A stretch of DNA of 64,000 nt from Perna viridis. Taxonomy: Eukaryota. A program made the translations under genes and the position numbers. Shown one piece after another: positions 9,660-64,000 of this stretch (position 1 is its first letter; each line of letters begins with the position of its first letter). Location of the stretch: positions 26,256,995 to 26,320,994 of the forward strand of contig CM074523.1 in assembly GCA_037379345.1 (NCBI GenBank). The letters are read 5' to 3'. A model generated the notes under the pieces. It was not told where the DNA came from. It was given only the letters and a program-made list of their open reading frames with translations, and did not search any database.

Positions 9660-9818
9660 TCAATCATCAGGTGACGATGACTTTCGATACAAAGTTCCAA
9701 ATTTAGACATGTATTTTTTAACATAGTCCTTAGCCTTAGCTTTCACATTCTCATTCACTTCTAAGTCCTCCACGTGTCGACAATGTTTCAACTCCTTGGC
9801 CATCACATGATGAGTGAG
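9660..9818 (-). CDS. SETD2: SETD2 exon 25 (last; SRI domain C-terminal half)
   Basis: ttttgttcacAG|LTHHVMAKELKHCRHVEDLEVNENVKAKAKDYVKKYMSKFG...*; 159 nt. Confidence 0.95.
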   Translation of the reverse strand, partial: LTHHVMAKELKHCRHVEDLEVNENVKAKAKDYVKKYMSKFGTLYRKSSSPDD

Positions 9819-39800: not shown

Positions 39801-42800
39801 TGTCTTGCCTTGACCTTGAAGATGATCTTGAATTGTCACTATCATCACTGCTGTATCTCCTTCGATCTTTTCTACTTCTCTTACTTTTTCTTCCACGCTC
39901 TCGGCTTCTACTGCGTTCACGACTACGTCTCCTGAAAGACTTTTCTCTACTACGGTCTCGACTTCTACTACGACTTTGGTCTCTACTCCTCCTTCTATCT
40001 GGACTTCTGCTTCGACTTCTACTGTAACTTCTATCTCTGCTATCATGGTAACGATCTTTCTTGAACCTTTTTCTATCATATCTGTTACGACTATCATATC
40101 GATCCCGACCTCTGCTTTCATATCGATCTCTGTCTCTGTTGTCATATCTATCCTCATCTCGTCTCTTCCTGTCTCGTCGTTTGTCCGAGCCTCTGTCTCT
40201 GTAATCATCACGGTCTCTATCTCTGGAATAACGATCATCATAATCTTTGTCCCTCGAGTAACGATCTGATTCCTTCTCTTTATACTTATTAGATTCTCGA
40301 TACTTGCTTTCTTCATATCTATCTTTATAAGATTCTCTTTCCCAACCTTCTTTCTTGCTTCTTGGCTTGTCAAGATCCAATGTTTTCAGCTCTTTGTCTA
40401 CACTGCGGAATTTTTCAATCATTTTGATAGCCTCCTCATTCTTTGTATCAATTCCTTTGAACTGCTCCAAAAGTTTAAGTGCCTCTTCTGTCTGCTTTTT
40501 CTTTACTTTCTCTTCAGCATGTTCTGGCTCTGTTGGTTTGTCTTCAGGTTCATCATTTTCAGACTTTGTCTTTGAGGAACCATAGTTAATCATGGCTTTG
40601 CCCCGTGCAGTAATGATACTTTCTATGACCTGACCTTGACCTTCCTCAGCAGATTCAACCTCAGACGAGCTAACTTGTTCAGTCTTTTTACCTTTGCCTG
40701 AGACAACGGTTTGGATTGCCATACCAATATCTTTTCTCTCCTCAACCTCTGACAATATTTCTCCTTCCTCCACTGTAGGAGAGGGTTTGCTAGGATTAAA
40801 TTCTGCTTTAGGTCGTCCCAAGGGTGAAAATTTACCAAATCCTCCATCAATGGCAGGTTTCAATGGTTCTAATGGATGTTTTGTCTCTGATAATGGAAGC
40901 TGCAGTTGTTTGCTGGTGAGCAGACTTGTTCTTGGTTCAGCTTCAGTGATGTTTTCATCAGGAGCTACTTCTATCATGCCACTTGGCTCTGGCTGATTAA
41001 TTGTATCTTCTGAACTTGATACCATGCTTTCTGATTCAGTGCTTTCTTCATCCTTCCTCTGTAGACTTTTATCCTGATTTTTATAACTATCAACTATTTC
41101 TGCTTCCAAATTCTTAGGTTCATTTTTCAACTCCTGAATGTTAACTGCTGAGGTGATATTAGATTCATCTGCCTCTTCTAATAATTCAGGTTTCTTCTTG
41201 CCAACCAGCTTTTCAGCAAAATCTTCATCATCGTCAGCCCATAATTTCCCAGCTTTTTCCGGTTTTCTCAATCCAAATTTGATTGGTTGCCCTTTCTGGA
41301 TGACCTGTATGGAGGTTTTTGGTTTTAGCACTATACCACTTTGTCTTGGAATATTTTCGCCAAGATCTGACAATGAAGGTTCATGTTTTACAGAAGACGA
41401 ATGCGTAGAATCCGCATCCACTTTACTAACAGTTTCTATTTTCTCAAGTGGTTTTGTTTGGGATTTCTTTTTCACAGATGTATCTTCCACCAGATCAGTT
41501 GGCTCCATGGGGTCATTAAGATTTTGGCTACCTGTAGTTGCTTTCTCCCCAGGAAGCGGTATGTTGAGCAAAGGACCTACAGCCAAACCTGAAGTTAGAC
41601 CTGGTAATGGTATTTCATCTGCAGGAACAAGATGTACTTTCTTTTTTTCTGTCGGTGCAGGAGATTTAACATTACTTAGAGTGGATTGACCTGGTAATGG
41701 TATTTCAACAGTAGAAACAGACAGAGTACTTTTTCTGTCTGCTGAAACAGGAGATTGGATATTACTTGGAGCAGCTTGGCCCAGGAAAAGTACTTCAGCA
41801 GCAGGTCCAGACAGTACTTTATGTTTATCCCCAGCACCTGGATGTATAGCACTTACTGTTTCTTTACTTGGTAATGGTATACCAACAGCAGGGATGGGTT
41901 GACTTTGAATTCTCTCATGTTCACCAGCAAGACCAATGGGTACTTTGACGCCACTGGAATGACCCAAGACAGCTGAAACTGGTTCTATTTTTACCTCGAT
42001 TTCAGGAGGAGGTACCATCTGCGGTGCAGAACCGATACTAAGTGAACTAGATATTTTAGTGACCAATTCTGGTTTATCACTTTCAGCCACAGATGGAACT
42101 TGAACGGGCTCATCATCTGTTGGCATCATGGGATCATACAAATCATCTGCAGTCGGTTCTAGAGGGTCGTAAAGGTCAGCTTCAGGTGGCTCATTCTGAC
42201 TAACTTCTTTAACCTGACTGATTTCCATGTTATCCATTTTTGGTATGGCTACAACTTCTGGTACCGGAACAGGGCTTAGACTTTGTTCTTGGTCTTTAAC
42301 AGCAGTTGGCAGAGGAACGTTTGCATGATCTATAAGTGTCTCCCACCTGGACTTTCTGCCTTTTGACATGGTAACTACCCTGTCTGTAGATTCAACTCCA
42401 GCAACTGGCTGAGGAACAGGAGAATTTTCTTCATGCTTTACCCCAGTATCTACACATATTACACCAGCTCCTTGAAATCCCAACTCTGAAGCAGTGATCA
42501 CTGGAGGTATAGCAGGTAGTTCCTTATCATTAATGCTACGGTTTTCATCATTCTTCACCACTGGCTCATTAGAGACATTAAGTCCTCCAACAGCTGTTAG
42601 GTTTCTACTGCTTTGTTGAATGTTAAGTTCAGCATTTTCAATAGCAGCTGGTTCTTTGTCTGATGTCTCAGCTGCAAGCAAGTTTGATTCTTCAGGTGTG
42701 TCCCATCTACTCTTTCCACTTCTTCTGTCTTTCTTAACCTTTCCTCTATCAGTTTTGAGCATTTCTGCGGGTTCATTGTCAGTGGAACTGACATTAGATT

Positions 42801-45800
42801 TGTCATCAGTGCTGTCTCCTCTTACAGTATTTTCAGCTGATGATTTGAAGTTTGATGTAGGAACTACATCAATCATCTTCTTGGGAGATTGTTTTAACCT
42901 CTGCAAACCATCATCATTGCTTGGCTCTTGTTCCAATTCCATTTCTCCACTTGCAACCTCAACTTCAGGGGTTTCTTCTTTTTTACCTGCGAGTTTCTCA
43001 GCAAAATCAAAATCATCTTCATCATCTGTCCATATTTTACCAGTGTTTCCTGTCTTTGGTAGACCAAATTTGATTGGCTGCCTCCTATCATCAGGCAATT
43101 TTCTTGAGCGAAAGGGAAAGGTTGTTCTAGGCAGCATGGACTGTTGTGCTTGAGTTGTCTTCCCTTGAGATCTGATAGGGTATTCCTTTCTTGAAGGTTC
43201 AGCACTTTGAGATTCCATTGAAGCATCTTTGGTTGAAGAAGTCAATGCTAAATTTCCACCTTTTGTATCAGATGGAACAACCTGCTTTTTATGATCATCT
43301 TGGCTAGCATCTGAAATTGAAGATTCTGGTTGGCTAGACACTACAGAAGGCAATTCCCCAGGTAGAACAATGTCTTCTAATCGAACAGAGCAAGTCATTG
43401 TTGATTTTACAGCCAATTTCTGAGCTTTCTTCTTTGGACTTGTAGGACTGACTGCTTCATTGAAGATCTTTATCTTGATGCCTTCACCTGGAAGAGCTAC
43501 ACTTGACAAGTCAACTGAAAGCGAACCAGGCTTGGAATCACTTTCCTTTTCCACATCTTCTCTGTTGGATTTCTTGTGACGTTTTGATAACTGTCTTTCT
43601 ATTGGTACCTCAGGAGTTTTTTGGTCCACAAAACCTTCAGCAGATCTTGATGACCTGGTTCTCCTTCTTGCTGCCTGTCTTTCTTCTCCTACAGAAGAAT
43701 CTGGAGCATCCTCAGATTTCCTTAATTGTTTAATTCTGGCTGGTTTTGGACTAACCTCTTTAACATCTGAGCCTCTAGACCTGAGGGACCACCTGGATGT
43801 GACATTAGATTGAGATTCTTTGACAAAATCTGTTGATTCCGTCTTTTTGGTCTCTCTTTCATCCTGGTAGTTCTCATCATCCATTTGTTTTACACCCTTA
43901 TGAGTTTCATCACCAGAAATTCTGTCCCTTCCAGTCTTCTTCTCTAGACTTTCTCTATCTGCTCTTTCTTGATTTCCACTTTCAAATCTTTCTTCGTCTT
44001 CATCAGTTTTTCTCTCGTCATATTCAGAAGAACTTCTATGCTTCTTCTTCTTTTTCTTGGATTTTTTGCTTTTCTTCTTTCCATGTTCTTTTGTTGATAA
44101 CTGTGCATTGTCATCACTGGTCTGGTAAGATAAGTGCCCACTAACAAGGTCTGACTGAGAATCCAAAGAAACAGCTGGATTTGTTCTCTTTTCTACATAC
44201 TGTTTAAATTCTGCCACGCCAGCCTTAACCATTCCTTTTTCCTTCCCTTCTAGTTGGTCAATACCATCAGTGTCTTTCTCGGATGTCTGACCTTCACTTG
44301 TCATTGTGTCAGTGTCAGTAATCAGACTTTCAGCTTCACTAACAGATGAGTTGATTGCAGCCTGTTGACCATCCTCTATACCACTGATTATCTTTTTTTC
44401 TTGAGGTAAGTTAGTGTCTATTTTCTCTTCTATTTGCCCACCAGATGTTGATCTTTCAGGAGAGATTGATGTCTCTGGTTTATCATCAGTCTCCTTGGAC
44501 TTTACATGAATCCCATACCTTGTTCGCTTGTACTGTAGTTTTATCGCATCATTAGTAGGATCAGATTTTGCTTCATCTTGTTTAGAATCTCCTCTGATAT
44601 TTGAATCTTGCATGTTATCAGCAGTTGCTGTAGACTTCTTCCCCTCAATTTGACTCATCATATTCTGGAATACTTGATCAGCCAGATTCTGACTTGCGTT
44701 CACATCTTGCATTGATTTAGCTTCTTCGGGCATTGATTTAAATTCTCTTGTCTCTGAATCAGTGCTGTGAATTTTTGGTTTAGTCTTGCCTTCCTCTTCA
44801 TCTGACTCTTCAGATGATTCATAATCAGCTATGATACTAAGTTTAGGACCCCGAGTGGATACGATTAGAGGAGTTTCATCCAACTCAGTCTTAGGTTCTG
44901 GAATATCAATATATTTAGTTGATTTCTGTGTTACTTTTAACCCTTGTCCAACTTGTTCTGTCAATTCAATTTCACTATATTTATTGTCATCAGTTTTGTC
45001 ATTCTTAGTGCTACCTGTTTCTGTGGAGGTTTTTCTTTTGTCCTCTAAAGTTTGAACTGATGATTTTTCAATATCACTACTTGAAGAATCAGAGTGAGCA
45101 TCACTTGCACTAGATTTGCTTTGAACAGGTAATCGTTGAAGCTTTGGTCGTCTCCGAGTTGGTTTGTCTTCACTTTCCCCTTTATCGTAAACATAATCTG
45201 TTTCCTTGTTCTTGTCAAATACTGTCTCTTCATGGATATCATCATCTATAGGAGCATTATCCTCTTGACTACGATTTTCATTGTCATGGTCAGAGCCTGG
45301 GGGATCTGCCAGTTCCTTCTTCTTTGTTGGATCTGAATTATAGAAGTCATCTTTCCTCTTTTCTTTGTCATTTTCAGATTTTTCATCATTATCTTGATCA
45401 ACATCATCTACCTTGTGGTTGCCCTTCTCCATTTCAAAGACCTTAGGGAAGTCTTTCTCCATTGAAGCACTTTTGTGTTTTTTGTCAGTGTAATGATGAA
45501 TTTCATCTAGCTTATGATCAGGAGGTCTCCAGTAGCGTTCAGCCCTGGTATTGTAAGGTTGTTCTTCAGGAGAAGATTGTCTCCTGTATCTTGGAGATTG
45601 AGATCTCCTTCTATCTAACTCCTCCATTTCGGGAGACCTGTATGACCTTCTGTACCTCCCATGCTCTTCACTCTCCTCTGATGGGGATCTTTTAGATTTC
45701 TTGGATTTTTTCTTAGACTCTCTGCTGACTGGTGACCTTGACCTATTTTTCTTCTTTTTTTTTGATTTCTTTTCGTAAACTTCATCCTCTTCACTTCCGC

Positions 45801-48800
45801 TATGATTAGGAGAATAATAAGACTGCCTAATATCTGGAGGACTCTGGGACCTTGGATCTGTCTGCCATTTACCATTCTTCTCAGGCTGACCTGTAACATT
45901 TTTCTTTGGGTTCTTGTTGAGATAGTAGTCCAGCTCATCTACTGGGTCAACGTATGATTTTTCAGATGAAGCCTTTGATCCTTGGTAATAACCTTCATAA
46001 CTTTCATATTCACTGGTTTTTGAGGGATCAAGCTTTTCTTTCTTTTTTGGACTTTCTTCATAATCAACAGGCAAGTCAGGCCATTCCCTCTTCCTATCTA
46101 TTTCCTGGTAATCACCTTTACCCCTTGGTTTAGATTCATACTGAGATCTTTTCCTCTCATGTTCTTCTCCTCCCCTATCTGGGAATGCTTCTGCTCCCCG
46201 TTCTACAAAGTCTCCTGATTGTCTCCTATCTCCATATTCACCAGGTCTCCTTTCCCCATATTCCCGTCGCTTTTCATCAATATCATATTCACTAGGTCTT
46301 CTTTCATCAGGATCAACAGGTCTTCTCTCTCCATAATCTCCCTGTCTCCTTTCTCCATACTCTCCTGACCTTCTCTCCTCAGCTGCTCTCCTGTCTCCAT
46401 ACTCTGGTCTCCTACTTTCATATTCAGCAGGCCTTCTCTCCCTATATTCCCTATCCCTTGTTCTTCTATCATCATAATCTTCAGGTCTCTTCATTTCATA
46501 CTCAACTGGTTTCCTGTCATAACCTTCTGGTCTCCTATCCCCATAGTCCTTTTTCGGGCGGACGACAGGCTCTTCTCCATCATCGTAGTCTCTTCTTCTA
46601 TCTCCTTCTCTGCCTCTTCTAGGATCACTTCTACTTGACTTGTACCTTTCTTCATACTCTGGTTCATCAACCGAACTACGATCCGAGTACTTAGCTCTAG
46701 TTTCCCTTTTTCTTTCTGGTTCAGGTTTGATTTTCGTTCTTTCATCATCAGAGCTATCAGGTCTTTCAAACCTTGAATCAGACCTTCTATCTTCTCTTAC
46801 TCTCAAATCTATCTGTTCCCTTGGCAAATCATCATCGAAGTAACTTTTAGATTCTTTTGAGTACCGTCGATCATCATCACTAACCCTCTTACTAGGAACC
46901 CCTCGATTGTCTCCATCGTAATCTGAATCTATTTGTGGATCTTTTGTCCTTGTCCACTTTTCCTCTGTTCTATATGACTGCCCAATTTCTTCCCTCATTC
47001 CTCTCAATGGTTCATCATAGTCATTTCTACGAGACTTATACTCCTTCTGGTACTTCTCAACAGATTTCATGTATCGATCAGGAATTGGTTGTTTCACTTG
47101 ATCATCGTATCCTCTCTCAGTATATTCCGGGATCATTTGTCTAGCCTCATCGTCTTTCCTCTGTCTTTGATCTCGCTTCCTGTATTCCTCAGACTGGGAG
47201 GATTTATAACTCTGTCTGTCCTCTGATTTATAACTCTGTCTGTCCTCAGACCTCTCCCGGTCATCACTTCTTCCAACTTCTTTGCCCTTAGTTTTTTTTT
47301 TCATTGTTCTCTGCTTCTCCAAACTTTCTTCAATGCTTTTGAGTTCCATTAGCAGCTTTTCTCGTTTTTCTTTCTTGATTCTTTCATCTTCAGGAGTGCC
47401 AGCAGATGACCTCTCACTGTCAGATTCATCTGAGGAGCTTGAATCTGAACTTGAGGATGAGGAACTTGAGGAGTCTCTTCTTGATTTAGATCTTTTCTCC
47501 TCTTGGAGATGTTTCTCTTGTTTACGCTCAAGACTTCTCCTTCTGGGCTCTACTTCTCTGGGAGGTGGTGAAATGGCTTTAGATTTCTCCACTGGTCTTG
47601 ATGGATATTTAGCAGATCTTGGGCTTGGTGACATTTCTCTTGTTTTAGACTTAAAATCGGGACTGGAATCCTGCTCTCTTGGTCTAGAAGTTCTGAAGTC
47701 AGATGATCTCCTTTCTGTGGGGTATTGTTGCCGTCTAAAGTCAGTAGGGTCTGGACTAGGAGAATGGTTCCTCTGTTTGGAAGAAAGGTATTCATCTCTT
47801 TTAGGACTTGGTGTTCTTTGCCTTTGCTTGACTGATCTATGATCGGAGAGACCATAATCTCTTCCTCTACCAGATTTAAAGTCTTCTTGTAAAGGAGGTG
47901 ATAAATCATGCCTGTTTCCTGATCTGAAATCAGACTCTCTTGGTATTTCTTGTTGTCTTTGTTTAAAATAAGTCTCTTCTGGAGTCTTTCTGGGCCGTCT
48001 GTCTTCAGGGCTTCTAGAATATTCCTGACCTCGTCCTCTGTATTCATCTGGGCAAGGTGATCTATCCTTAGCCTTCCTGTTTCTGGGACTTTCTGATCTT
48101 TCCTTTTGCTGACCTCTATAATTTCTTGACCTCGGACTTTGGGACCTATCTCTCTGTCTTGATTTATAGTCTGATCTAGGACTTGGAGACCTTTCTTGTC
48201 TACGATTCCTGGATCCCCTACTATAAGGACTACTGCTACGATCACGCCTTCTATAATCAGCTTCTCTGCGGCTGTCACTATATCTTGGGCTTGGAGAACG
48301 ACGAGCCCTCCTCTGTCGATCATCGTAATCTTTTCTCCTCGGACTTGGTGATCTCCTTGTTTTTTTACTGGAGTACTTCTCATATGACCTTGATCTAGAC
48401 CTTCTATCCCTACGATCACGGGAATCTCTATCTCTACGTTCGGGAGACTTGGATTTCTGCCGCTCCTTTGATGACCTATACTGTCTAGATTTTGAACTTT
48501 CAGATTCAGCACTAGGTGATCTTCTAGATTTACTAGACCTGTCATCATCTCTTCTCCTTTCTGGGGACACTGCAGGCTTCTTCTCCTCGATTTCTTTCAC
48601 ATTTTCTTTTTCTTTCATGTCTTCTTTTATTTCATCAGATTTAGACTTTTTCTTTTCTGGTTCAACATCATCATAAAGACCCTTTAATTTTTCTTCAGAA
48701 GATTCAGCAGACTTAGCAGTAGGTATCGCACCGTTAGCTTCAGGATGAACTGCAGTTACTTCACTCTCATCTGAATTATCCTTTTTCAGACTTTCTACAG

Positions 48801-51800
48801 TTTTCTGATGTTGCTGGTATTTCTGCATGATACTTGACAGTGTCTCTTCCCCATCAATTCCGGGTCTATACATTTCTTTCTTACCATCCTTTTTCTTTTT
48901 CTTGTCAGCATCCTCATCTTTGTCTTTTAGAGGACTTTCAGCTGTAACACTCTTTTTGGTTGCTGGCATTGCAAACTGTACCTTACTGCCAGTTAGAGCG
49001 GCAGGATTAAAGAACCTTCTGGTGGACTTCAGTACAGGGTTAGTAGCTGCACCTGTCACTGAGGCCTGAGCAGCCTTAGCTTGCTTCTGTTTGATTCTCT
49101 CCAGTAATTGTTGAGCTGTAGTTTTTGTAGGATAAGAAGGTTTCTCTGCTTCAGGCTCAGGCTCAGGTTGTGGATTATGTTTTATCTCTGTCTCTGGTTC
49201 AGGCTGTGATACTACCTCAACTTTTGGTTGCTCTACAGGTGGTACTGGTACGAAACCTTTTGGCTTAGGTGGCTCCGGCTCAGTTGCTTGCTCAGCTGCT
49301 CTATTCTGGCGAAACACTTGCATCAATTCTTCTGCTGCTTTTTGAGCAGGAGTTTTGTTCTCATCAAATGGTTGAGAAGGTGCAGACTGAATAGGTGTAA
49401 GTTGGGCAACAACTGGAGGAGCTGGAGCAGATTCCTGAGCTAGTGAATGGGCAGAGTACAGCTGAGTAGGGAAAGCCACAGTTGGTGGTGGTGGTGGTGG
49501 CTGCGAGTCTGAAGGTCCTGTTGAAAATTTTGGATTCATGAACTTTGATGTGGGTGCAGGAGCTGCAGAATACACTGTTGGAGGGGCCGATACTGTAGCT
49601 TGAGATGAGAATGTTGTTGGTCCTGCTGCATAAACAATTTTAGTTTCTTCCTCCTGTCCTTGTACCAATGGTGATGATTCAGTTGTCTCTGCAGTGTCTA
49701 TTTCCATGTCATCTGACTTACTTTCCTCTTCTTTAGGAGGAGGTGGTACAGGAATGTTCTCTGGTTTAGGCTCCTCAGGAGGTGGTGGTGGAGGAGGGAA
49801 CGGCATCACCTGTGGAGGTGGCGGCTGTTCATAGTACTGCTGAGGGGGAGGCAATGGTTGTTGCTGCATGTGCATCATTGCAGGATCCATTGGTGGTGGT
49901 GGCGCATGAGGCTGCATCATGGCTGGGTCCACTGGAGGGGGAGGGGCCTGTGGTGGCATCATTGTTTGGTCCATGGGTGGTGGTGGTGGTGGGTACTGCG
50001 GAGGCGGAGGAGGTGCTCCAGCCATTGGAGGTTGTCCCCACTGTTGCTGCTGGTCTCCCATCATCGGTGGTGGTGGGGGATAATATTGTTGATCAGCAGG
50101 TGGCATCATCTCTCCTCCTGGAGGCGGCATGGCCTGCATAGGTGGAGGAGGCATAGGACCAGGATAACCTGGAGGTGGCTGGTATGGTCCTTGCTGAAAT
50201 GGTGGAGGGCCCATATGTGATGGTGGTGGTCCTGGAGGGCCATAGTCTGGAGGTGGAGGTCCAGGAGGGTACTGCTGTTCAGGGGGGCCAGGTGGGGGCC
50301 CAGGGGGAGGGGTTGGCAACAGTCCTCCTCTTGGTCTTGGTGGTGGTGGTCCATGAGATCCTGGTCCAAACCCTGGTGAATCTGGTCGTGGTGGACCACG
50401 GTCTCTATGGTAATGATATCTATCATAGTGCCTTCTGTCATCTTCAAATGGTGGAGGTGGACCATGTCTGTCATACCTGTCATGGTAATCCCTGTAAAAG
50501 AAAGTTTATAAATCACTATTTTTGTAATTGTTTTGTATTTTGTCCAAGGAGAGTTGTATCCAGTCAAGGACAGCCACATTGAGTGGGAGCCTAATATACT
50601 CATTTAAAGGCCAAACATGTCCTGTCAAGGAATAAACGTGTCAACTTGTGCATTCAACAATATTTCAATCATGTTTAATGTGAGTGATTAAAAGTAATAG
50701 GTTTTAATATAGGTAAATACCTGAAAACATTGTACAAATCTACATGTACACTGTATTGAAAACCCCAACTGGACAAGATACATATGTTGAGTACAATTAT
50801 GATATATTGAATAAAATACATGTGTATAAAGTTATCTTAAGATTGCTTCTAATTCACTGATCAAGTGTCTTAAGAATATATATGTATAAACATTCAGATT
50901 TTTTATGCAATTGGTGATGAAATTAGAAAATGATTCCAATTATTGCAAATGTATAGTATACAATGTACCTTTCCACTCTAGTAGTATTTGTGTAGTACTC
51001 AAGTTTACCATTTACAAGGAGCCATATAACATTTTCTCTTTCATATTATCATATAACTAACATATATAGTCATAAAAACTAACAAACAAATTATTTCAAT
51101 CAGATTACTGAATCAAAAGAACCAATGGTTGCCAATAAAAAAGGTGGAGTGAGGTGTTCTAGGATTTTTCAGAAATTGGTTTTCTCGGGAAAAATCCATA
51201 TAAAATCAACTTTCCCACAGTCAATGACTGCTTTCCTAACAAAACAAATCCTTACAGCATATGAAGTTTTCAACTTGCCACGGGAAAGAGTAACTAAGTA
51301 CCTAACTTTCCCTGACCCATATTTCACTTGCCCCGGGTAACCGGAAATAAGAATCCTAGAACACTGGAGTGGTCATAAGCATTTGTGTCCAAAGTGCCTA
51401 TGGTTCATAAAAGACAACCATATTCAATATAAAAGTAGTATATAACCATGATACTGACCCTGGTGGTCCATATCTTCCCCTGTCATAATCATCATATGGA
51501 GGTCTGTCATATGGGGGTCTGTCATAGGGTGGGCCGTCATAAGGAGGTCCATCTCTCCTTGGTCGGTACCGCCAGTCATCTTCAAAGGGAGGAGGGGATC
51601 CCCTGAATCTTCTGCGGTCATATCGATCATCATCATAGGGTGGTCGGTCATCAAATCTGGGACCTCGACCTGAAATATTACAATGATAAATTTGACAATA
51701 CATGCCTAAAAAATCTGAAGATTTTAAATGCAGCAGTCAAATTAAGGCAATAAATGATTAGTTCCAGAATCTCATGCCTCCAATGCCAATGCTATTAAAG

Positions 51801-54800: not shown

Positions 54801-57800
54801 TGTACTTGACATGTAGTCTTTGCCGTTTGATTTCAGAGTAATAAATTTTCTTAAACAACGGATACAGTTTAAGGAAAAGTACATGATAAAATCTCCATAG
54901 CTTATAATACAAATGTAGGCCTGAGGACCATAAACTAGAGAACTTAAAAGACAAAAATATTCTTCAATTCAGTGGTATTCAAAACCAAAAAAAATTCTGA
55001 ATCCACTCAAGTTAAGAATATTCCCTGCCTTTTTCCATGTTAGGTGGTGAAGCGGCTAGTTCACTCTAAATCATTCAAAGCAAAAAAAATACCGTAAGAG
55101 AGTTAATCAAAATTCACAGAGACTCAATCAAGTTCAATGGTTGTTTTGCATCGGTCTAGCCTTTAATCTTGATAATCTAAAATATCCAGATAAATAGCCA
55201 GACTGTGGTAAAATGAAGATTAACCTTGAAACTTTTGTGAAATATTTTCACTCTAATAATATAAAAAATATCAGGCTGTCAGTTGTTGAATGCATTCCTT
55301 ATAATACATGTATTTAATTAAATTGATAGTATTCAGTGAAAATGAAATACTGCAGGACTGACAGACATGTCTGGTGAAAATACCTTCGGAGCTGTAAAAT
55401 AAATATTTTTTCCATTTGCCCAAATAGAAGAAAAGTTCACGATATGAGATTCGGTCTGGTAATCTCTGAATCGATTTCGCATACACTGTAGTGTTCCAGA
55501 TTTATGTGAATGGCCTTGCAGATCTATCTGTTTTACCAAAATAACTATCATTCTGTGTGTTTGGACCACAAATGACAATGCATTATATCAGTCTATAATA
55601 ATTTTGAACTTGGTGATACTCCTCTCATTAAAAGAAATTATCTTTTCAAAATGTATCATTTGCATTTAAAACCATACAAATTACAGAGAATCCTAAACAA
55701 CATCTAATTGTACTTAACTACATAAACAAATAATATTTAATATGTGTAGAATTATGCCCTGCTCTTAGTCTGGACTCTGTTAGATGGTTTTTTTTTCTAT
55801 TGTTAAAATGTTGTTTTCTATGTAATCAAATTGATTGACTTGTATATCTAAGGAGGATCTGTAGTTTTGTTGTCCATTTTTATAGATCAATAGTACAAGC
55901 AGGTTGCACTTTGATCCATGTGGATGAATACATGGTATTTTGTTGTGCTTTTCATAAAACAATTATGTTAAAGAGTTCTTGTATTACAGCATTTTCCCGA
56001 CTTACTTGTTCAATTTTGTACGCCACTCATTTGACAAATGATAATATATCTCTTACTGTATTAAACCATGGTATTCTCTTACTTTTTTAAATATTGTATG
56101 CAAAAGAAAACTGCACACACATACATTGCATTAAAATGACAATCTGTGAAAAGAGCAATTTAAGTATTCATAAGTCTTTCAGTTGTAAAATTAAAATTGG
56201 ATTTACAATCTATCAACATATGTACAGATAATTCATTTTCTCTCACTTTTACAATTATCACTTCAGAGTGTGATCTCCCAGCAACATTTTTTGTTAATGT
56301 TGTCCAACAGACTTCAAATGTAGTGCAAACTGAGAAAATAAGAACATAACTTTATCCAAGTAAAGAATAGTTCAATCATAAGAAATATTGAAAACTCCAA
56401 TAGACCTACCTGGTCGATCTCCATGATCAATTCTTCTAAATGGATTGTCATCAAAACGAGGGAGTGCATCTCTACCAAAATCATCATCTTCATCATCAAA
56501 TCTTCTCCATCCTCTACCACGACCACGTCCACGACCAAATCTATCATCAAACTCCTCCTCAAACCTCTTTTCCTCGTCGCTATCCCCCTCACCATGATGC
56601 CATCTTGGTTTTTCATCTCTTCCCTCCCTATCTTCATACCTTGATGGCAAATCAGCCATTCCTAATTGGTAAGCATTCAATTAACAACTTATTCATACCG
56701 TAAATGTACTAATTTTCGTGGTGTACAAAGTTTTGTTATTTTCACAGTGGATTTTGCATTTTGCATTCGTGGCGTTGTCAAAATCACAGCATATTTCACA
56801 TACAATGTACATTGTACAAATGCAAGTAGTATCCTCAAAATGTGTCTGCATTTTTCATATACACTTTGTTTTCAAAGTGTGCCAGCTATAATATTTAAAA
56901 AGCAATTCTGTCAACATGGGATTTGAAATGGTTTATGAGAAGGTCATTTGTTTTAATTTACTTAGTTCATAGTCTTTTACAGCGAGTATTTACAAAATAA
57001 TACAACAAGTTATTAAACTGAAACTTCAAATTAATTCTTTTTTAAATTCATGAGAACAAAAACATCATCATTTCTAAATCTTTGATATTGTAAAATAAAT
57101 TATCATGCGTGTGACATTTACAGAAATGTATTCTGATATTAAGTAAAACATAAAGATACTTATGAAACACGGGTTCAGAGTTGATGTACATTTGTAGATG
57201 AATTCTTCATTAATACAGTATTTTTTTAAGATGAGAAATACAAATGTAGAATAAATGATTTGTCAGAAAATGAAACCTGTAATAAGATTCTGAAGTTCAC
57301 TAACAGATTATTATGCTTTTCCTTACACAGGGTTGTCCTGCAATCAAAAAGAACCAAGTCCAACCAGATGACTTGATTTTTTTCTACTTTATAATTGCTG
57401 ATTTGATCGATCTCATGTTTTTACAGGTGTTTACATTTCTCCTCTTTAAAACCTGAAAAACCTTCAGTAACTTGACTCATATTAAACCCATACCTTCATG
57501 ATAATAGGTTTGGTCACTTGGTCTTCTAACTTTACCAAATTGAGTGGGGAAGTCAGTCATGGATACATTCCCTTCTTCATCTTTCTCCTGTTCTTCTGAG
57601 GGAGGTTTATCTTGATCCTCATCTGGAGGTTTCTCTGGACCATCACTGGGACCAGTAGGTGGTCCTTCTGATGCAGGAGGTCCTGGAAGGTCTACCTCTG
57701 GGGCAGGGTCCGGCACTGGTGCTTCAGCTGCTGCCCCTCCACCTCCTCCTTCACTGGAAATAAATATAAAATCACTGATTAAACGAGATAAAATAGTTTA

Positions 57801-60800
57801 TATAGCAAGGACTTTAAATATATTTGACTTATTTTACTCTATTCTAACAATAACCAGTACATTTAAGTCATGTATCAATATTTAGTACATAAACAATGTC
57901 TTCATAGAAGTGTTGTAGGGTTTTGCCAAATTTTCAGGTAAGGTGAATTTTGACACTTGATGATTACTGATGTTTGCAGCTGAAACATACCAATGGATTG
58001 ATAAGCAAAGGAAAACACTGCGTAAAACTAGTGCTCACCTGAAACTCACATTTTTCACTTATTAAATATTTGATTTCAGGAATAAAAAAAGTATTTTAGA
58101 AATTGAAAGGTTTTCCCTATCTGCTATGGCTGTTAACATGAAAGCCAAAAACTGAAAATACGGCTACTTCAAAGAAGTTATTTTTGACCATGACCAAGTT
58201 GAATTTACTGTACGGATGAACAATTCATCAATCAATTTTTTATCTTTCATCACACGGGTTGAAAATTTTTTTGGGAAGACCCGAGCCCTGGACTTTTTCA
58301 TCTTTTGTACACTAAGCCCGATGAATGTTGTGTCAAGTCCCAACCAATATAAATGCAATTTTGTTATCTGATATTCTTATGTATAATTCTATGTTTGCAA
58401 GGAAGAAGACACAGTGTCAATTGATTCCGTCTACAGGTCTGATGCCTTGTCATCAGCTTTCCGTTTCTTTAACCTCTAAACCCTGAAATTGTAATTGAGC
58501 AACAATATTTTCCTCAAAAGTTTATGAACTAAATTTGATCTTTATCATTCCAGTGCTTGATTAATAAAATTTGTAGTAAGTCAAAAAATGTGTCTGGTCA
58601 AGCACAGGTGTGATTCAGACTTGAGAATGACTAATCAATAGATCGATCTAGAGAATACCATTCTAAAAATAAGGTTATAACTATTTATAGGTCAGGGAAT
58701 AGATCGAGAAACATGGTCCAAATAATGACAACAAAATCTTTCAAAAAATAGTTTTTTATTTTTTCAGATTTGCCATGCCCGATGGACTTACTTCATTGAA
58801 AAACGGCAAGTCTGAGGTGCAATTTTTTTAGTCCCGGGGGTCGGGCTTGAGGAATTTTCAACCCCTGCATCATCTCAAATAGTTGGCTAAAAGCTATTAA
58901 TAAACATCATTTTTACCTTTCAAGGGCCTAACTCTAACAAGTTAGTGTTTTTGCCTGAAGGCATGCTTATTCAAGTGCCTTCAGGGTACTCAACCGGTAC
59001 AAATGGTTATATAGGGGGCACCCCATCTTGACATGGGGCAGTTTATTTTCTTATACATGTAATACACAGCTTTCACCCTAGCATGATGTTGTAAAATGTC
59101 ATAAATGTGTACAAACACAACAGATGTATACATGTAAGTTTATTTGCAAATCAATTAAAAAACAATTAATATATTCATATTATATGTTGGATTTTGCCAA
59201 GTGGAGGCACATTGTAAAATAATGAGGGCGGCATGGTGCTAGAAGACCAAGGCATGGTGCAGCACCACGCCAAATTGGTCTAAGGAAACCTCTAAAGGTG
59301 TTAACCTACTTTTCCCAAATGGAAACTTCTGTAGGCCTTATCAACTGAAACTCTTATGATTTAAAAGATAGTGGAGAAAAATATCTGCATTGAAGGGAGA
59401 TAACTTACAAGTAGTCATCCTACAACTTACATGTATCTGTAGAGCCAAACTGAGACTAACATCATAAGTATCACTTCATCAATCAATTTTATTTTCTATC
59501 TTGGTTTTCAAGATACATGCTAAGAGCAGCAATCAAAAGATGAAAAAAAAAAACAAGAGGCTCCCAGGAGCCTGAATTGCCCACCTGGTTGAATTTTGCC
59601 TTTCAATGGCAATAAATTTAAAAAGTCCAACAATTTTGACTCAAGAAGTCTTTGGTAGGGCTTATCATAAGGATCATTTCAAAAAATTTCTTTTAATCTA
59701 TCATAGTTTTCAAGATATTGACTGAAAACTGCTAAAAAAAGTCATTTTTCCCCTTTCAAGGCCAATGACTCTTACAAGGAGTCAGGTCTCACTAAACACT
59801 TCCGGGTCAAATGGCCAACCCCCTATTTAGTACCAAAAATACACTGAACCTAGAAATATGCATTGTAAATACATTATTTGTGTGTATTCTGATCAAAAGT
59901 GGTTAAAATAAAGCTGAGAATGTGTACTTTAAAATTATTTTTGTAATTTACTACAAAAGTGAATGAATATTGTTTACATGTGTGAGTGATTTGCCTCCAT
60001 GCTGTCAGTTAGCAGAAAAGGTAAAGATGATGATTTTCAGTTTTTTCTTTTTTATTCAAGTAAATTTTGTGAAGAATTTCTAAGGTCATTGTACCATTAG
60101 AATAATGATTTTGAAAGCCTTCTTTTCCAAGCTTTGCAATGTTATGCAACTTTCAGGTGTCATTTGTCTTGGGAATTCACAGTTAAACATTGAAAATTAC
60201 TTGTTTAACATGTCCAGTATTAGAAACTTTAGAAGTGTTAGTGAGACCTTATCTGACAACTTTTATCCCTGAAGACTTTTGTAGTCCTAATAATAAGGAT
60301 CATTTCAGCTATTGAAAGAATTTGGCTAAACCTAATGGTCTTGGAGATATATGCCAAAAACTACTGTCTGACCCCTACACTGTATGTTCTATTTTAAGTT
60401 ACGGCTGCCATGTTTTTTGACGAATCAAAAATCCCCGCATCAGTTCTACGCACCATGTTTGAATCCAAGTAATCAAGTAATGTCAGAGGAGAAGATTTTT
60501 GATAGAAATAACATTAAAAATAGCAAATATCATCGAAAAAAGGACAACAACTCCAACATGGCTTCATGGATTAAAACCAAAATTTGACCAGAGATAGATC
60601 TTATCATGCTGAACACTTGTGCCCATGTCAGAATTTAGTTTAACATAACAGTTTTGGAGATATACACGTGTGAAAAACTACTGTTTGACCCCTATGTTCT
60701 ATTTTTAGTAAGGGCAGCCATGTTTTCGACGAATCAAAAATCTGCACATCAGCTCTATGCAGGATACCCCAAGGAACATATATATACCAAGTTTTGTTCT

Positions 60801-62801
60801 AATCAGTCAAGTAGTTTCAGAGGAGAAGAGTTTTGTATAATTGTTAATGACAACGATGGACGCCAAGTGATGGCAATAGCTCACAAGGCCTTTGGTATCT
60901 TCATTGTTGAAGTTCCTTAGCTGACCATATTAATATCATGACTGGACATGTGAGTGTTTTATTTATGAATTTCAATGAATTATCATTTTTGGTGTGAAGT
61001 CAAATTTTAATTTGATTGGATAATGAAGGAATTTAAACTGACCAGAAGCCATTCCATCTTTCAAGATGGAAAAATCACTATAATTCAATCTAGAATACCT
61101 TTGAATGCAGAAATCAATATTTAAAATACTCTGGATTATCCATTGTAGAGAGCATTTTAAAGATTTATAATAAAGAAAATAGCTGCAACAGGTTTTAAAT
61201 TTGCTTTCGGGATTCCGCGTTTTCCAAAGGTACATTTTTTGTACCTATGAAGCGTCACCTAGCCCACCTCCTAGACCTCGAGGTGCCTGGATGTTCAGAA
61301 AAGAGAATAATTAAACATTACACATTGTTTCGTCCCTTGGTAATGACTAGCCGGTCAGTTTCAGTAATTAAACCTAAGTATTTTCAAACTGCTGCCTAAT
61401 CTGTTCCAGATTGAAACAAAATTTTTAGCTAAAATTAATACTCTGTTTTCAACAACCATGACAACAGGTTTAGCTACATTTGTATTTGAGGAATTGGTAA
61501 GAATCGCAAAATTAGTTCATTATAGATTTCCAAATCAGAACTGACAAGACGGTGATGCATCTTTTGATCATTACTACCCAAACATCCAATCATGTTAAAT
61601 CCTGGATATATAGCACAATATCAGTAGTGAAATGCATCACATGCTCCTCTGCTGTTAGACATACTGTCCATGGCACGCTGTGTTGTTGGTAAATCATACT
61701 TCACCATAAACCAAAAGATGCTGATAGGTCTGTAAAACTTCAACTTACAGGCCGATGCTTATACATACCACCCATATAAAAAATATTAATAATGTGGTTT
61801 GCGTCTGGGTCTGGATGTGGTATCCTTCATTACAAATAGAGTATGTAAGTCTCGTGTAAGTTTCATGAGAATGGGTCCTCATCTCCCATTCAAATCATAG
61901 AGATTCGTCATTAACATAGCTTTCAATTCAATGTTAAAAGCAAAATATATTTTTGAGAAAAGATACTGATCAAAATGACAAATATCTAATTCTACTGAAT
62001 AAAAATGTTACGAAAAGCATGGAAATAGAAGATTTTGCATAGTGATACTGCGTTTACATTTCCCGGAAGTGAACAATAAAATGCAGACATCTAAAATTCC
62101 AGAAAGAAAACTGAAACTAGAACGAGACTTACAAACCCTACAACAGTAAAAAAAAAGTGGCAAAATAACAGTAAGGGTAACTAAGGAGATCATAATGGTA
62201 AACTAATCTTTGAAAACATGTAAACGTACGTTGATATTTTGAGTACAGTTTGTAAAATCTGTAATTCAGATTTCTATCAGCAGTTTGACAATAAGTTAAA
62301 CTACACTAATGATTCTGACAACTGTACCCCAAAAGACATATATCAGCTGCCAGCACTGAAAAGGGGAGGCAAGATAGAAAAAATGGTGTTCAAGTATATT
62401 AGTGTTTCTTCTTAACATCCAGAGGATCGTGTGAATAAGGAACACAATAAAAAAGGTAAAAAAAGTCCTGATCCTAGAGATGTGATAAAATTCTGTGCCA
62501 TTCTTGATAATGACGATAAAAAACAGTTGCTGAATTTAAGGTCTTATGAATCACGCTAAAACACTGTAACGAAAACAGTATAAAAATAACCTCATATAAC
62601 ACTAACAACAGAGAAAACTGGCATTTAATGGCTTATAGTAAACGGCATCCACACCCTCCTGAGAATATGCTGTGAAGACTGGGCATCTTTCTTCTGCATA
62701 TATATTTGGGTAATAATACAGAGTGGATAAAGGAACACTTAGCACTATGTATCAATGAGTTACACTTACTCAGTAGGAATAGCAGGGTCATAATCATCCA
62801 T
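9660..62801 (-). CDS. SETD2: Histone-lysine N-methyltransferase SETD2 (H3K36me3), 25 coding exons, ~5,378 aa
   Basis: The spliced ORF has AWS (MLCDC...CGEDCLNR...ECGSRCQCGEYCTNRRFQ), SET (KGFGL...FVMEYVGEV...[15 protein letters not shown]...ELTFDY), post-SET (CFCGTDKCRGTIG), WW (LPPNWKTAKDAEGKLYYYHTTTRQTQW) and SRI (DDFKHLARKLTHHVMAKE) in SETD2 order. All introns are GT-AG and phase-compatible. Exon lengths sum to 16,137 nt. Confidence 0.97.
10447..10548 (-). CDS. SETD2: SETD2 exon 24 (SRI)
   Basis: MSSYIVICLNPFRKPDCKVGRICSTDDFKHLARK|GTAAGT; 102 nt, phase 0-0. Confidence 0.95.
10909..11698. repeat. 36-bp intronic minisatellite, ~22 copies
   Basis: Unit agaaatcttgtggccatatagtgctctatcagagta, with variants agaatc/agagta and tagtgc/tactgc. 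Confidence 0.97.
11738..11880. repeat. 39-bp tandem repeat (~3.5 copies) abutting an exon donor
   Basis: cattaccacactgttgtattgggcatcagatacttagta; the last partial unit runs into the donor at 11881-11886. Confidence 0.9.
11887..11970 (-). CDS. SETD2: SETD2 exon 23 (SRI start)
   Basis: SGRKKTTTAAADTSTETAKKIKDQFRQK|GTAAGT; 84 nt. Confidence 0.92.
12852..12930 (-). CDS. SETD2: SETD2 exon 22 (WW C-terminal part)
   Basis: (R)QTQWSPPGWEDSIMDDMDIDTPPDDK; 79 nt, phase 2-0. Confidence 0.92.
13322..13503 (-). CDS. SETD2: SETD2 exon 21 (WW N-terminal part)
   Basis: IQQLQQQ...PPPPSPPKSKTPKLPPNWKTAKDAEGKLYYYHTTT(R); 182 nt, phase 0-2. Confidence 0.92.
13909..14115. mobile_element. MITE (TA-CTGT terminus, Tc1/mariner-like non-autonomous)
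   Basis: ~40-bp imperfect TIR: tgtaaaagtactattgtttgtggggtaccaattttcgagg versus ccacgaaaattgataccacaaatataagaacctttcaca. Confidence 0.65.
14690..14832. repeat. ~68-bp diverged tandem duplication
   Basis: tagggaccca..gaaaca.agaca..ggtaaaacagtac...ctcc.aaaagtgc x2. Confidence 0.7.
17605..17652 (-). CDS. SETD2: Candidate 48-nt cassette exon of SETD2 (TPTTTPAVQKDSIAER)
   Basis: atcttttgaAG acceptor, GTAAGC donor, phase 0-0 in a phase-0 intron, no stop. No homology support. Confidence 0.45.
18488..18694 (-). CDS. SETD2: SETD2 exon 20 (Q-rich)
   Basis: MQEQLMAQQ...AFIQQ|GTATTA; 207 nt, phase 0-0. Confidence 0.85.
19220..19365 (-). CDS. SETD2: SETD2 exon 19
   Basis: (G)MEQYFIDPSTGQPYPP...VNQQ; 146 nt, phase 1-0. 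Confidence 0.87.
19894..20087 (-). CDS. SETD2: SETD2 exon 18
   Basis: KVLLPTPPKMSKEERRQIFEAKVKAEEE (similar to the vertebrate EERRKLFE coiled segment); 194 nt, phase 2-1. Confidence 0.9.
20456..20546 (-). CDS. SETD2: SETD2 exon 17
   Basis: AGWDTRKKKKRPPPPPPPEDESDSDAGKP(R); 91 nt, phase 1-2. Confidence 0.85.
21041..21112 (-). CDS. SETD2: SETD2 exon 16
   Basis: SSNPDKSRRMEQLERDQDRFKQL; 72 nt, phase 1-1. Confidence 0.82.
21804..21867 (-). CDS. SETD2: SETD2 exon 15
   Basis: ELFRIPKKQQVEERKRIEREL, completing the conserved W..LKE.(F/Y)RIPKK block; 64 nt, phase 0-1. Confidence 0.92.
21938..22090 (+). mobile_element. Partial copy of the TTAA-flanked MITE family, between ~80-bp direct repeats
   Basis: gaaatcagtgatatgtttgtat...gagttgtgtccc matches 36532-36691 in the same orientation. 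The flanking repeats 21856-21937 and 22090-22167 include the exon 15 acceptor. Confidence 0.85.
22407..22946 (-). CDS. SETD2: SETD2 exon 14
   Basis: ILGTLKILPITTKNMIKDSKILSLVQRW...LADELLLNWSDLK; 540 nt, phase 0-0. Confidence 0.93.
23941..24047. repeat. 51-bp tandem duplication
   Basis: atcatacatgtgctataactaattaagaataaactagcttgagatatgatg x2. Confidence 0.88.
24329..24439 (-). CDS. SETD2: SETD2 exon 13
   Basis: DCSEDNCLRLFLDYHGLELLWTWMADSKEEWQDLKVK; 111 nt. Confidence 0.93.
24936..25013. repeat. 39-bp tandem duplication spanning the exon 12 donor
   Basis: ctggaaaatgccatatcttacctcaacaatcttcagaat x2, identical. Confidence 0.95.
24996..25124 (-). CDS. SETD2: SETD2 exon 12 (alternative in-frame end at 24957)
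   Basis: IEEELDLLSEQGLHNKKDVLNLCRLMVRAEETHHRIKILKIVE|GTAAGA; 129 nt. Confidence 0.92.
25219..25400 (+). mobile_element. Penelope-like element terminal module (intronic, antisense to SETD2)
   Basis: Most complete copy of the module; a 13-bp perfect inverted repeat at 25232-25244 and 25321-25333. Confidence 0.75.
25577..25724 (-). CDS. SETD2: SETD2 exon 11 (post-SET)
   Basis: KEAQKCFCGTDKCRGTIG...LFQEED|GTAAGG; 148 nt, phase 2-0. Confidence 0.95.
26085..26182 (-). CDS. SETD2: SETD2 exon 10 (SET C-terminal part)
   Basis: [32 protein letters not shown](G); 98 nt. Confidence 0.97.
29143..29218. repeat. 38-bp tandem duplication
   Basis: tttagatgttcaagcatagtggacggtaaactaagaag x2. Confidence 0.85.
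29583..29834. mobile_element. MITE with TA-flanked CACAGGCAAA TIRs and internal TTCACATGA repeats
   Basis: tacacaggcaaa...tttgcctgtgta; the interior is dense in tcatgtgaa/ttcacatga units. Confidence 0.8.
31476..31651. mobile_element. MITE with GGCCACATC TIRs (possibly PIF/Harbinger-type)
   Basis: ggccacatcaagtta ... taactagatgtggcc. Confidence 0.65.
32010..32660. repeat. Diverged 60-70-bp tandem array (~10 units) carrying sense-strand splice-site motifs
   Basis: Unit ccagttcaatatggctaattgcctagtcaaatatgacatatttgtaactatattgactta; the minus strand reads TTTGACTAG-21 nt-GTAAGT. Confidence 0.9.
34009..34210 (-). CDS. SETD2: SETD2 exon 9 (SET core)
   Basis: GTFVMEYVGEVLDY...[43 protein letters not shown]; 202 nt. 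Confidence 0.98.
35120..35196 (-). CDS. SETD2: SETD2 exon 8 (SET start)
   Basis: RQYADVEPFRTDWKGFGLKTNAELQ(P); 77 nt. Confidence 0.96.
35254..35464 (-). mobile_element. TTAA-flanked MITE (GG termini, Kolobok-like), copy 1
   Basis: TTAA|ggaggtagacctaaggtaaggg ... cccttaccctaagtctacctcc|TTAA; the interior is the reverse complement of copy 2. Confidence 0.9.
36118..36169 (-). CDS. SETD2: SETD2 exon 7 (AWS)
   Basis: (C)GSRCQCGEYCTNRRFQK|GTATGT; 52 nt. Confidence 0.96.
36499..36710 (+). mobile_element. TTAA-flanked MITE (GG termini, Kolobok-like), copy 2
   Basis: TTAA|ggaggtagacctagggtaaggg ... cccttaccctaggtctacctcc|TTAA. Confidence 0.9.
37399..37518 (-). CDS. SETD2: SETD2 exon 6 (AWS)
   Basis: KLSKKMKRMLCDCSITDDEKRFGVEACGEDCLNRMLYIE(C); 120 nt. 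Confidence 0.96.
37967..50491 (-). CDS. SETD2: SETD2 exon 5, giant 12,525-nt exon encoding a disordered region
   Basis: ttttacAG acceptor at 50492-50493. The 4118-aa ORF extends in frame to that acceptor and ends PQFEPVLENLYLSE(R)|GTAAGG, the conserved pre-AWS segment. Confidence 0.95.
51152..51366. mobile_element. MITE with CAGTGTTCTAGGAT TIRs (hAT-like)
   Basis: gtgttctaggattt ... gaatcctagaacactg. Confidence 0.65.
51459..51669 (-). CDS. SETD2: SETD2 exon 4 (PPYD repeats)
   Basis: (G)RGPRFDDRPPYDDD...PPYDRPPYDRPPYDD...YGPP(G)|GTCAGT; 211 nt, phase 1-2. Confidence 0.85.
54021..54221. mobile_element. Degraded TA-CTGT-type MITE
   Basis: tactgtaaa...aataattattgc versus gcaataatttcattatttacag (imperfect inverted ends). 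Confidence 0.45.
56410..56661 (-). CDS. SETD2: SETD2 exon 3 (acidic, RGRGRG)
   Basis: (G)MADLPSRYEDREG...RGRGRGRGWRRFDD...HGDRP(G)|GTAGGT; 252 nt, phase 1-1. Confidence 0.8.
57494..57753 (-). CDS. SETD2: SETD2 exon 2 (possible alternative donor at 57536)
   Basis: atttccAG|(D)EGGGGGAAAEAPVPDPAP...YYHE(G)|GTATGG; 260 nt, phase 2-1. Confidence 0.75.
58252..58867. mobile_element. ~615-bp non-autonomous DNA transposon (hAT-like CAGGGGTTGAAAATT ends)
   Basis: gggttgaaaattttttgggaagacccgagccctggact versus agtcccgggggtcgggcttgaggaattttcaacccctg. Confidence 0.6.
59552..60896 (+). mobile_element. Non-autonomous Helitron/Helentron-associated (HINE-like) element
   Basis: Starts aacaagaggctcccaggagcctg...cacctgg after an A-run, has internal ~90-bp direct repeats (60357 and 60673), and ends gacgccaagtgatggcaatagctcac..ggcctttgg. 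This layout is typical of bivalve HINEs. Confidence 0.7.
62770..62801 (-). CDS. SETD2: SETD2 first coding exon (MDDYDPAIPT-D)
   Basis: ACAATGG Kozak context, GTAAGT donor, phase 2 matching exon 2. The peptide resembles the vertebrate SETD2 N-terminal MGDFYDPEHPTPE. Confidence 0.82.
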
Positions 62802-63030
62802 TGTGTTCAAAAATACATATCAACGCGACCGCATGGTCAAGTTTCTTCCTTGTATACCAAATTTTGCGTAAATTATGGCTAAAATCTTTCTTCAATTTAA
62901 GTGTAAGATAGTTTTCTTTGTAATTGTGAAGTTTGCAGAATGCGTTTAGTGGTAAACAATGTGTAAAATCAAAATAAACGTTTTCTAGTTTCGCTTCTTA
63001 TGATGTTGTTTCCCCAGCTTTGAGGCTCTC

Positions 63031-63205
63031 GCATGGCGTGGGGTCGTACCGGAAGTAGCATGTGCCTTTTGTTTTATTTAACTTAAATCAGTTTAACAGC
63101 TTTGAATGCGTAACTTTATTAGAATAAATTTATATCGCAAAATTAATATGATTAAACTTTCATTTATTATCTGTTTTTATTAATGATAAGAGATATATGC
63201 GCATA
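63031..63205 (-). promoter_or_regulatory. Putative TATA-less SETD2 promoter
   Basis: ETS consensus ACCGGAAGT at 63048-63056, YY1-like ATGGCG at 63033-63038 and an NRF1-like palindrome TATGCGCATA at 63196-63205, in a locally CpG-richer patch ~250 nt upstream of the ATG. Confidence 0.5.
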
Positions 63206-63839
63206 AGGGCTAATGCCTTCGCCCTGCAGGAGGCCCCTCGGACTTTGGTTAATCCGGGACTTTTCCCCTTTATTCGCAGTTTTTATATGCTTTTTCAACT
63301 CTGTCTGCTTGCACGCATTAAAGTACGTATATTTATGGTGTAAAGAAAAGACAAAGCGTAAAAATTAGTACTGAAATTTAATTTAAAATCCAACAAATCA
63401 AAAGACACCACATAAGTCGCAAATTTGACTTATGACCAACTTTAAATTCAATAAAGGCAAACCACAACGTACATACTACAATAAATAAATCCACTAGCTG
63501 ACATCTAGACTGTAACCCGAAGTGATGCACCCAATTTAAGAATAAAACGCCTCTATGTAGTTATATATATTTTTTTAAATCAAGGAATTTATGTACCATT
63601 TTTATATTCAATGTTCCATAAGTATATTTTAGCCAACAAATATACAAATTTCAATAGACAGTAAGCTACCGGAATGTTAAAATCAATTTAAGTAAAAAAA
63701 ATATTGATAAATTCGCAGTATATCTCTTTTCTATTTCATTTGTGGTTAATTTTCTCACAAAAAAGAAAAAAAAACGCCGTTTTAATAACGTGAAAGAGTA
63801 ATCAAGGAACCAAGGTCATAGCGGTAATCAAAAGAATGT

Positions 63840-64000
63840 TATCCAGGGACAAAGACCAGACATGGAAAACAGACATGCAGAACAAAGAACATGAAGTATC
63901 TAAAATCATACATACAAAGTAACAAAAGCAAATGAGCAACTCGGACTCCACTGAGAACTGGGAGTATGAACCAGGGTCACCGGTAGGGTAATTAAGCGTC
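63840..64000 (-). mobile_element. Penelope-like element terminal module (truncated by the window edge)
   Basis: Reverse complement of the module at 25260-25400 (aaatgagcaactcggactccact...ccggtagggtaa). Confidence 0.75.

Follow-up and report, generated by a model that had tools for sequence, protein, structure and literature searches.

The SETD2 locus of Perna viridis raises the question of what a seven-residue word, YDPxxPT, does at the very start of this protein and again some 3,000 residues further on. SETD2/Set2 is the H3K36 methyltransferase that marks histones in transcribed genes. The window, i.e. the whole stretch of 64,000 nucleotides that was analysed, carries on its minus strand (to which all coordinates below refer unless stated otherwise) a mollusc-like SETD2 gene with the Pfam domains AWS, SET, WW and SRI in that order. 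The start of AWS lies in an ORF piece at 37398..37574 (PF17907, E 1.2e-4, narrowly missing the curated cut-off) and the SET domain in another at 33982..34239 (Pfam E 2.5e-14; 91% identity to Mytilus galloprovincialis SETD2), and the best PDB matches of the AWS-SET core are SETD2. The WW domain (PF00397, ORF piece at 13321..13527) and the Set2-type SRI domain (PF08236), encoded by a first exon at 10417..10590 and a last exon with the stop codon at 9663..10007, score above the Pfam cut-off. Domain order and sequence mark the host gene as a normal SETD2 ortholog. A 39-nt tandem repeat array (~10880-11720), open in several frames and probably a minisatellite, sits in the intron that precedes the first SRI exon, and a 158-codon stop-to-stop ORF (1678-2154, plus strand) belongs to a neighbouring gene.

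Whereas the arm that precedes AWS comprises ~1,400 residues in human SETD2, it comprises ~4,400 in Perna viridis, where an uninterrupted frame of 4,427 codons leads from the ATG at 62801 across a giant exon. Read joints and frame define exon 2 (57494..57753; acidic, Pro-rich), exon 3 (56410..56661; RG/RD-rich) and exon 4 (51459..51669; RD/PPYD-rich), which are followed by the giant exon (37967..50491; 12,525 nt) with its acceptor placed by reads and its donor by sequence only. This exon is of low complexity, has no Pfam match and stops just short of AWS. The available text of two papers describes the SETD2 N-terminal region as free of known domains or motifs and as acting in turnover through disorder (PMC8405934, PMC9167812), and none of the SETD2 chains located in the PDB exceeds 1,133 residues, the N-terminal arm being absent from them. 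A seven-residue word at the tip of the arm offers a precise handle on the arm's function.

The ATG at 62801 opens MDDYDPAIPT, followed by GA|GTAAGT, so that the coding part of exon 1 amounts to 32 nt (62770..62801; ten codons plus two bases, from sequence and RNA reads) and contains motif copy 1, YDPAIPT (62772..62792; residues 4-10), with DE following across the splice. That this segment joins exon 2, as the sequence-only reading had supposed, is borne out by RNA: the joint from 62770 to 57753, which reads CT..AC on the plus strand and hence GT-AG, is one of four GT-AG joints in all and is spanned by nine raw reads with seven different starts in RNA-seq run X21 as well as by contigs of runs X1, X4 and X6 (these three presumed RNA), reads and contigs having been aligned to positions 44001-64000 of the window. 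The splice adds T|GAA, and the SETD2 N-terminus reads MDDYDPAIPTDE. The unspliced reading, MDDYDPAIPTE followed by a stop, is ruled out by the reads, which show the splice. Transcript contigs start at ~63016-63025, and the transcribed leader contains two tiny upstream ORFs (MRSR-stop and MYF-stop, 62809-62834) directly before the SETD2 ATG.

The motif had also been said to recur at three places in the giant exon. This stands for two full tandem copies, LYDPLEPTADD (42142..42174, 7-mer 42171-42151, Tyr at residue 3026) and LYDPMMPTDDE (42109..42141, 7-mer 42138-42118, Tyr at residue 3037), and needs qualifying for the third, LNDPMEPTD (41494..41520, 7-mer 41517-41497), in which Asn replaces Tyr at residue 3244; as this Tyr is kept by all 13 ortholog copies, we regard the word at 41494 as a decayed or weak copy. 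In all six frames of the 64 kb, YDPxxPT occurs in three words only, namely copies 1, 2 and 3. When the giant ORF was shuffled 20,000 times with its composition preserved, at least one YDPxxPT arose in 102 shuffles and at least two in none, and at least three DPxxPT were seen in 10 of 20,000. The tandem copies follow each other with a period of 33 nt, i.e. 11 residues, and share 8 of 11 residues and 18 of 33 nucleotides; seven of the eight codons for the shared residues differ synonymously, which suggests that the repeat is old and has been maintained as protein sequence. A recent DNA duplication of the pair is ruled out by the 18/33 nt identity, no DNA tandem repeat being detected. The shuffles without a two-copy outcome and the synonymous changes strengthen the proposal that the motif has been multiplied here.

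The internal copies lie outside the read-aligned stretch, and we infer their presence in the mRNA from the length of the X4 contig (13,745 nt), which covers exons 1-4 and then 6,283 letters beyond 44001, the exon ending 6,034 beyond this position, and from the independent assembled product P0123 (4,048 aa), in which both full internal copies are present. When full-length bivalve SETD2 proteins (2,296-7,307 aa) were sought, this near-identical P0123 was the sole match, and the Tegillarca SETD2 model is missing the internal-copy region or the motif. The motif-rich zone is flanked by an old internal duplication of ~40 residues, QPIKFGL...W.DDD.DFAEKL.GKK (42961-43080 and 41170-41289).

Across animals, the SETD2 set comprised 260 proteins from SET-domain searches and cluster look-ups, P0123 alone being dropped. 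Y[DEN]PxxPT occurs in 21 of these 260, among which are many fragments, models without the first exon and non-SETD2 relatives, with 25 instances against 0.35 in shuffles, and 18 of the 25 fall within the first 10 residues. Y[DN]PxxPT opens SETD2 in vertebrates, amphioxus, echinoderms, flatworms and chelicerates (lamprey, hagfish, catshark, lungfish, frog, amphioxus, crinoid, starfish, Schistosoma, Dicrocoelium, tick and scorpion), frog and lungfish SETD2 starting with MGDFYDPEHPTE. In 13 lineage-level rows Y, P3, P6 and T7 are all present, as set by the search pattern; at position 2, 12 rows have D and one has N, positions 4-5 are free (position 5 being Ser in four rows and acidic in one), and D/E stands at -2 in nine. 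Sea urchin SETD2 has five YxPxxPT copies between residues 92 and 155, spaced by 12-26. The expected conservation is hence found from flatworms to frogs, yet it is not universal: in the insect/crustacean clade, which includes named insects and decapods, 0 of 24 SETD2 rows have YxPxxP[TS] before SET, so that a loss of the motif there is likely, the long-branched SETD2 tree having served only to group rows. The motif is also absent from two teleost SETD2 sets and one filarial nematode. Some absences may be missed micro-exons, a SETD2 first exon of 10-12 codons being one that gene models can miss. For starfish, hagfish and catshark, SETD2 isoforms with and without the motif-bearing first segment are annotated, and the starfish isoforms merge right after PT-E, which is the position of the intron in the window if exon structure is read from the protein isoforms.

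According to the accessible part of a recent study, the SRI family consists of SETD2, RECQL5, PHRF1, SCAF1 and SCAF11 (10.64898/2025.12.08.691990). PF23030 loci from a metagenome scan yielded a PHRF1/SCAF11-type set, the best 120 of 449 proteins, mostly arthropod. Within these best 120 of 449, the motif is present in 51 of 59 PHRF1-type proteins of at least 1,000 aa, in 15 of them twice, and shuffles give it in 0.2%; the eight long proteins without it include six named mite/springtail rows. As the arthropod rows are kin, 51/59 shows conservation and not independent events. The 82 instances in the best 120 of 449 have E/D at position 5 in 73 cases and D/E at -2 in 65, and given a single acidic residue at position 5 in the 13 SETD2 rows, a double-phosphomimic look holds for PHRF1 only. 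The same best 120 of 449 contain seven YSPxxPT words, one of them YSPTSPT, in tandem in two weevils, where they lie at about residues 661-782, which is, by position in unaligned proteins, where the upstream YDP copy of other insects sits. Within the PHRF1-type set (P0264-P0383, the best 120 of 449), 35 of the 59 long proteins have a further word that resembles the CTD, SPYSPxSS with DDLFEPP after it. For human SCAF1, the readable part of PMC2994767 gives the peptide DIYDPFHPTDE, which carries the motif, is unphosphorylated within it and is phosphorylated seven residues past its Thr. Taken together with the 51/59 long PHRF1-type SRI proteins (best 120 of 449), this peptide supports the earlier view of a motif common to CTD-binding factors.

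Altogether, the motif is transcribed, spliced, far above chance and conserved in bilaterian SETD2 and arthropod PHRF1; it is common to two families, each with an SRI-type domain at its end, and has been multiplied in separate lineages. On the sequence evidence, the arms of SETD2, PHRF1 and SCAF1, predicted to be disordered, have in common the short conserved motif [D/E]-x-Y-[D/N]-P-x-x-P-T. It behaves as expected of a short linear motif, forming a conserved, above-chance island in a disordered region (low pLDDT, coil in a PHRF1 fragment) and recurring in unrelated contexts, i.e. at the SETD2 N-terminus and inside SETD2, inside PHRF1 and in SCAF1. AlphaFold2 models of the PHRF1 fragment with and without SRI give the motif block as coil with pLDDT 64 and 68 and, as they report no contacts, are uninformative on docking. 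We predict that the motif is very probably a functional docking motif of some kind. Pfam holds no family for it, a PDB sequence search returned no match to the tandem stretch, six chance-level matches to a six-row motif profile and no PHRF1-type SRI structure, the ESM Atlas search gave no usable match, and the scanned viral contigs contained no CID-coding DNA. A complex prediction for the Mytilus SRI domain (P0004, 838-936) with the tandem motif scored 0.02 against a mark of 0.34; made without alignments by a tool unproven on peptides, it speaks neither for nor against binding.

Further short words stand in and around the arm. PEKVKSRWRR (38347-38376) lies just upstream of AWS, and K[VILT][KR][ST]RWR precedes the SET region in 84 of 260 SETD2-set proteins, so that the disordered arm has another conserved word besides YDPxxPT. 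KSRWDT (42700-42714) and KSRWET (42340-42354), close to the tandem YDP copies, resemble what we take to be UHM-ligand motifs of splicing factors, and EEGEIL (40753-40770), also seen in the sea urchin SETD2 arm, presumably resembles the ARS2-recruiting EEGEI motif. Four IPLP[GS] words fall within ~110 residues (41548-41880); [IV]PLP is found in the arm of 24 of 260 SETD2-set proteins and right after the motif in both flatworms. KVQF in the arm (48973-48984) and KKRVRF after a TND-like domain (22731-22748) are, we assume, candidate PP1-docking RVxF words, and YDAWDP (38203-38220), near the end of the giant exon, also stands in Tegillarca SETD2.

We tentatively propose, at somewhat less than an even chance, that the motif is a ready-made mimic of the CTD heptad which docks into a CTD reader, with a CID the most likely candidate; we chose this reading because of the heptad-register positions, the YSPxxPT and YSPTSPT variants and the chemistry of yeast NIMs. 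In this mechanism, Tyr1, Asx2-Pro3 and Pro6 would reproduce the Y1-S2-P3...P6 register, Asx-Pro would supply the beta-turn recognised by CIDs, and nearby acids would replace phosphates, as in the NIMs of Trf4 and Sen1. Weighing against it are the strict Thr7, the rarity of an acid at position 5 in SETD2, acids that stand mostly downstream of the Tyr, the tandem period of 11, flanks out of heptad register and the lineages that lack the motif. Each protein could then grip the phospho-CTD through its SRI domain and show the motif to a second reader of the SCAF4/8, RPRD1/2, PCF11 or CHERP class, which would connect factors of the elongation phase with termination and 3'-end factors. In the ~4,400-residue arm, the two internal copies may add valency, and with copy 1 on its own first exon, alternative promoters could yield SETD2 with or without the motif. 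Background on these partners comes from two sources consulted in part: SCAF4 and SCAF8 come along when SCAF1 is purified, an association that the authors attribute to bridging by Pol II (PMC6579486), and the human CID proteins are listed, with PHRF1 given as a pSer2 binder (PMC10470302). A wider form of this proposal, which we consider doubtful, is that SRI proteins extend the CTD code by a portable pseudo-heptad: SETD2, PHRF1 and SCAF1 would hold phospho-Pol II at one end and their constitutive mimic at the other would recruit or outcompete CID termination and anti-termination factors, and in SETD2 first-exon choice would act as a switch and copy number would tune the effect.

A serious possibility is that the motif docks a single folded partner, common to its carriers and without CTD-reading function, such as a WD40, HEAT or similar elongation or RNA-processing scaffold, the likeness to the heptad being incidental. 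All conservation evidence fits any shared partner. The spacing (11 residues in the window, 12-26 in sea urchin), the free positions 4 and 5 in SETD2 and a strict Thr7 with essentially no Ser favour such a partner: YxPxxP words have T at position 7 in 90 of 120 cases and S in none in the PHRF1 set (best 120 of 449), and T in 30 of 80 and S in three in the SETD2 set, and a Thr in place of the Ser of the CTD suggests a pocket that the canonical heptad does not need. However, YSPxxPT, YSPTSPT and Ser at position 5 occur naturally, Y-Asx-P is the core of the NIM, and both carrier families are CTD-associated SRI proteins.

The pairing of motif and SRI-type domain in both families examined would suit a pseudo-substrate that folds onto its own SRI and dampens binding until Ser2P/Ser5P CTD displaces it, and in PHRF1, D2 and E/D5 occupy the positions of the two phosphates that SRI prefers in the available text of PMC9167812. 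Yet the same text describes SRI as needing two phosphorylated heptads, SETD2 copies mostly lack the acid at position 5, insect/crustacean SETD2 and several mite/springtail PHRF1 rows keep SRI without the motif, and extra copies 3,000 residues into the arm would bring one SRI little, so that we judge self-binding unlikely. It is rather improbable that the word serves an enzyme, as a docking or substrate site for a kinase, phosphatase, prolyl isomerase or ubiquitin ligase, e.g. as a SETD2 degron. Its invariant Tyr and Thr are phosphorylatable, SCAF1 is phosphorylated close by, and the SETD2 N-terminal region drives proteasomal turnover; against this, the motif itself bore no phosphate in the SCAF1 peptide observed, and the accessible part of PMC8405934, the source on turnover, ascribes it to cumulative disorder with no single hypersensitive region. 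Lastly, the N-terminal copy alone might matter and the internal copies be neutral by-products of low-complexity expansion, as the Tegillarca model and the lost Tyr of the third copy would allow. This is very improbable in view of motif residues kept through seven synonymous changes in eight shared codons, of 0/20,000 shuffles with two copies, and of independent multiplication in sea urchin SETD2 and 15 PHRF1 proteins (best 120 of 449).

The literature searched, mostly open-access and with subscription papers and bioRxiv supplements largely outside it, gave no account of the motif and no paper that pairs a CTD mimic with SETD2. In their accessible parts, the SCAF1 study deals with its SRI domain (10.64898/2025.12.08.691990) and the PHRF1 study with its PHD finger (10.1101/2024.11.20.623956). 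The portion of the SLiM atlas PMC13370473 that was covered has no relevant passage and one supplement no YDP match, its data tables, outside this scope, being material that may bear on the partner; PMC2364031 is indexed for YDPF, a word not found in its readable text. If the pseudo-heptad reading is true, the N-terminal arm of the tumour suppressor SETD2 gains a defined binding function for the first time. Should a CID prove to be the partner, CTD mimicry, which has been shown so far for the Nrd1 pathway of budding yeast, reaches animal elongation factors, and the H3K36 methylation machinery is linked to poly(A)-site choice.

Compared with the CTD heptad Y1S2P3T4S5P6S7, as given in the available text of PMC9167812, the motif has the same Tyr1, Pro3 and Pro6 and a hydroxyl at position 7, and natural variants with Ser2 and Ser5 add to the likeness. 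Unlike the heptad, it has Asp or Asn at position 2, free positions 4-5 and a strict Thr7, and unlike the CTD array it occurs in one to five dispersed copies instead of a seven-residue tandem. A true CTD array is ruled out in the window by the period of 11 residues; the flanks do not continue the heptad register. The motif also resembles the yeast NIM: according to the accessible sections of PMC4186968 and PMC7110113, NIMs of Trf4, Sen1 and Mpp6 use acids upstream, a Tyr and an Asn-Pro beta-turn in a disordered setting to bind the CID of Nrd1, and their authors expected more such CTD mimics. Both are short disordered words with acids, a Tyr and an Asx-Pro turn (predicted for the motif) in transcription or RNA-processing factors; in the motif, Y-Asx-P is present, the disordered setting is predicted and an upstream acid at -2 is common, with no long acidic run. 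NIMs, in contrast, carry a long acidic run before the Tyr, do not conserve Pro6-Thr7, occur in budding yeasts only and have the Nrd1 CID as their proven partner as far as these sections go, whereas the motif is bilaterian, sits in SRI proteins, has its acids mostly downstream and has a putative partner. By this analogy the motif is plausibly NIM-like, and a candidate for binding a CTD reader.
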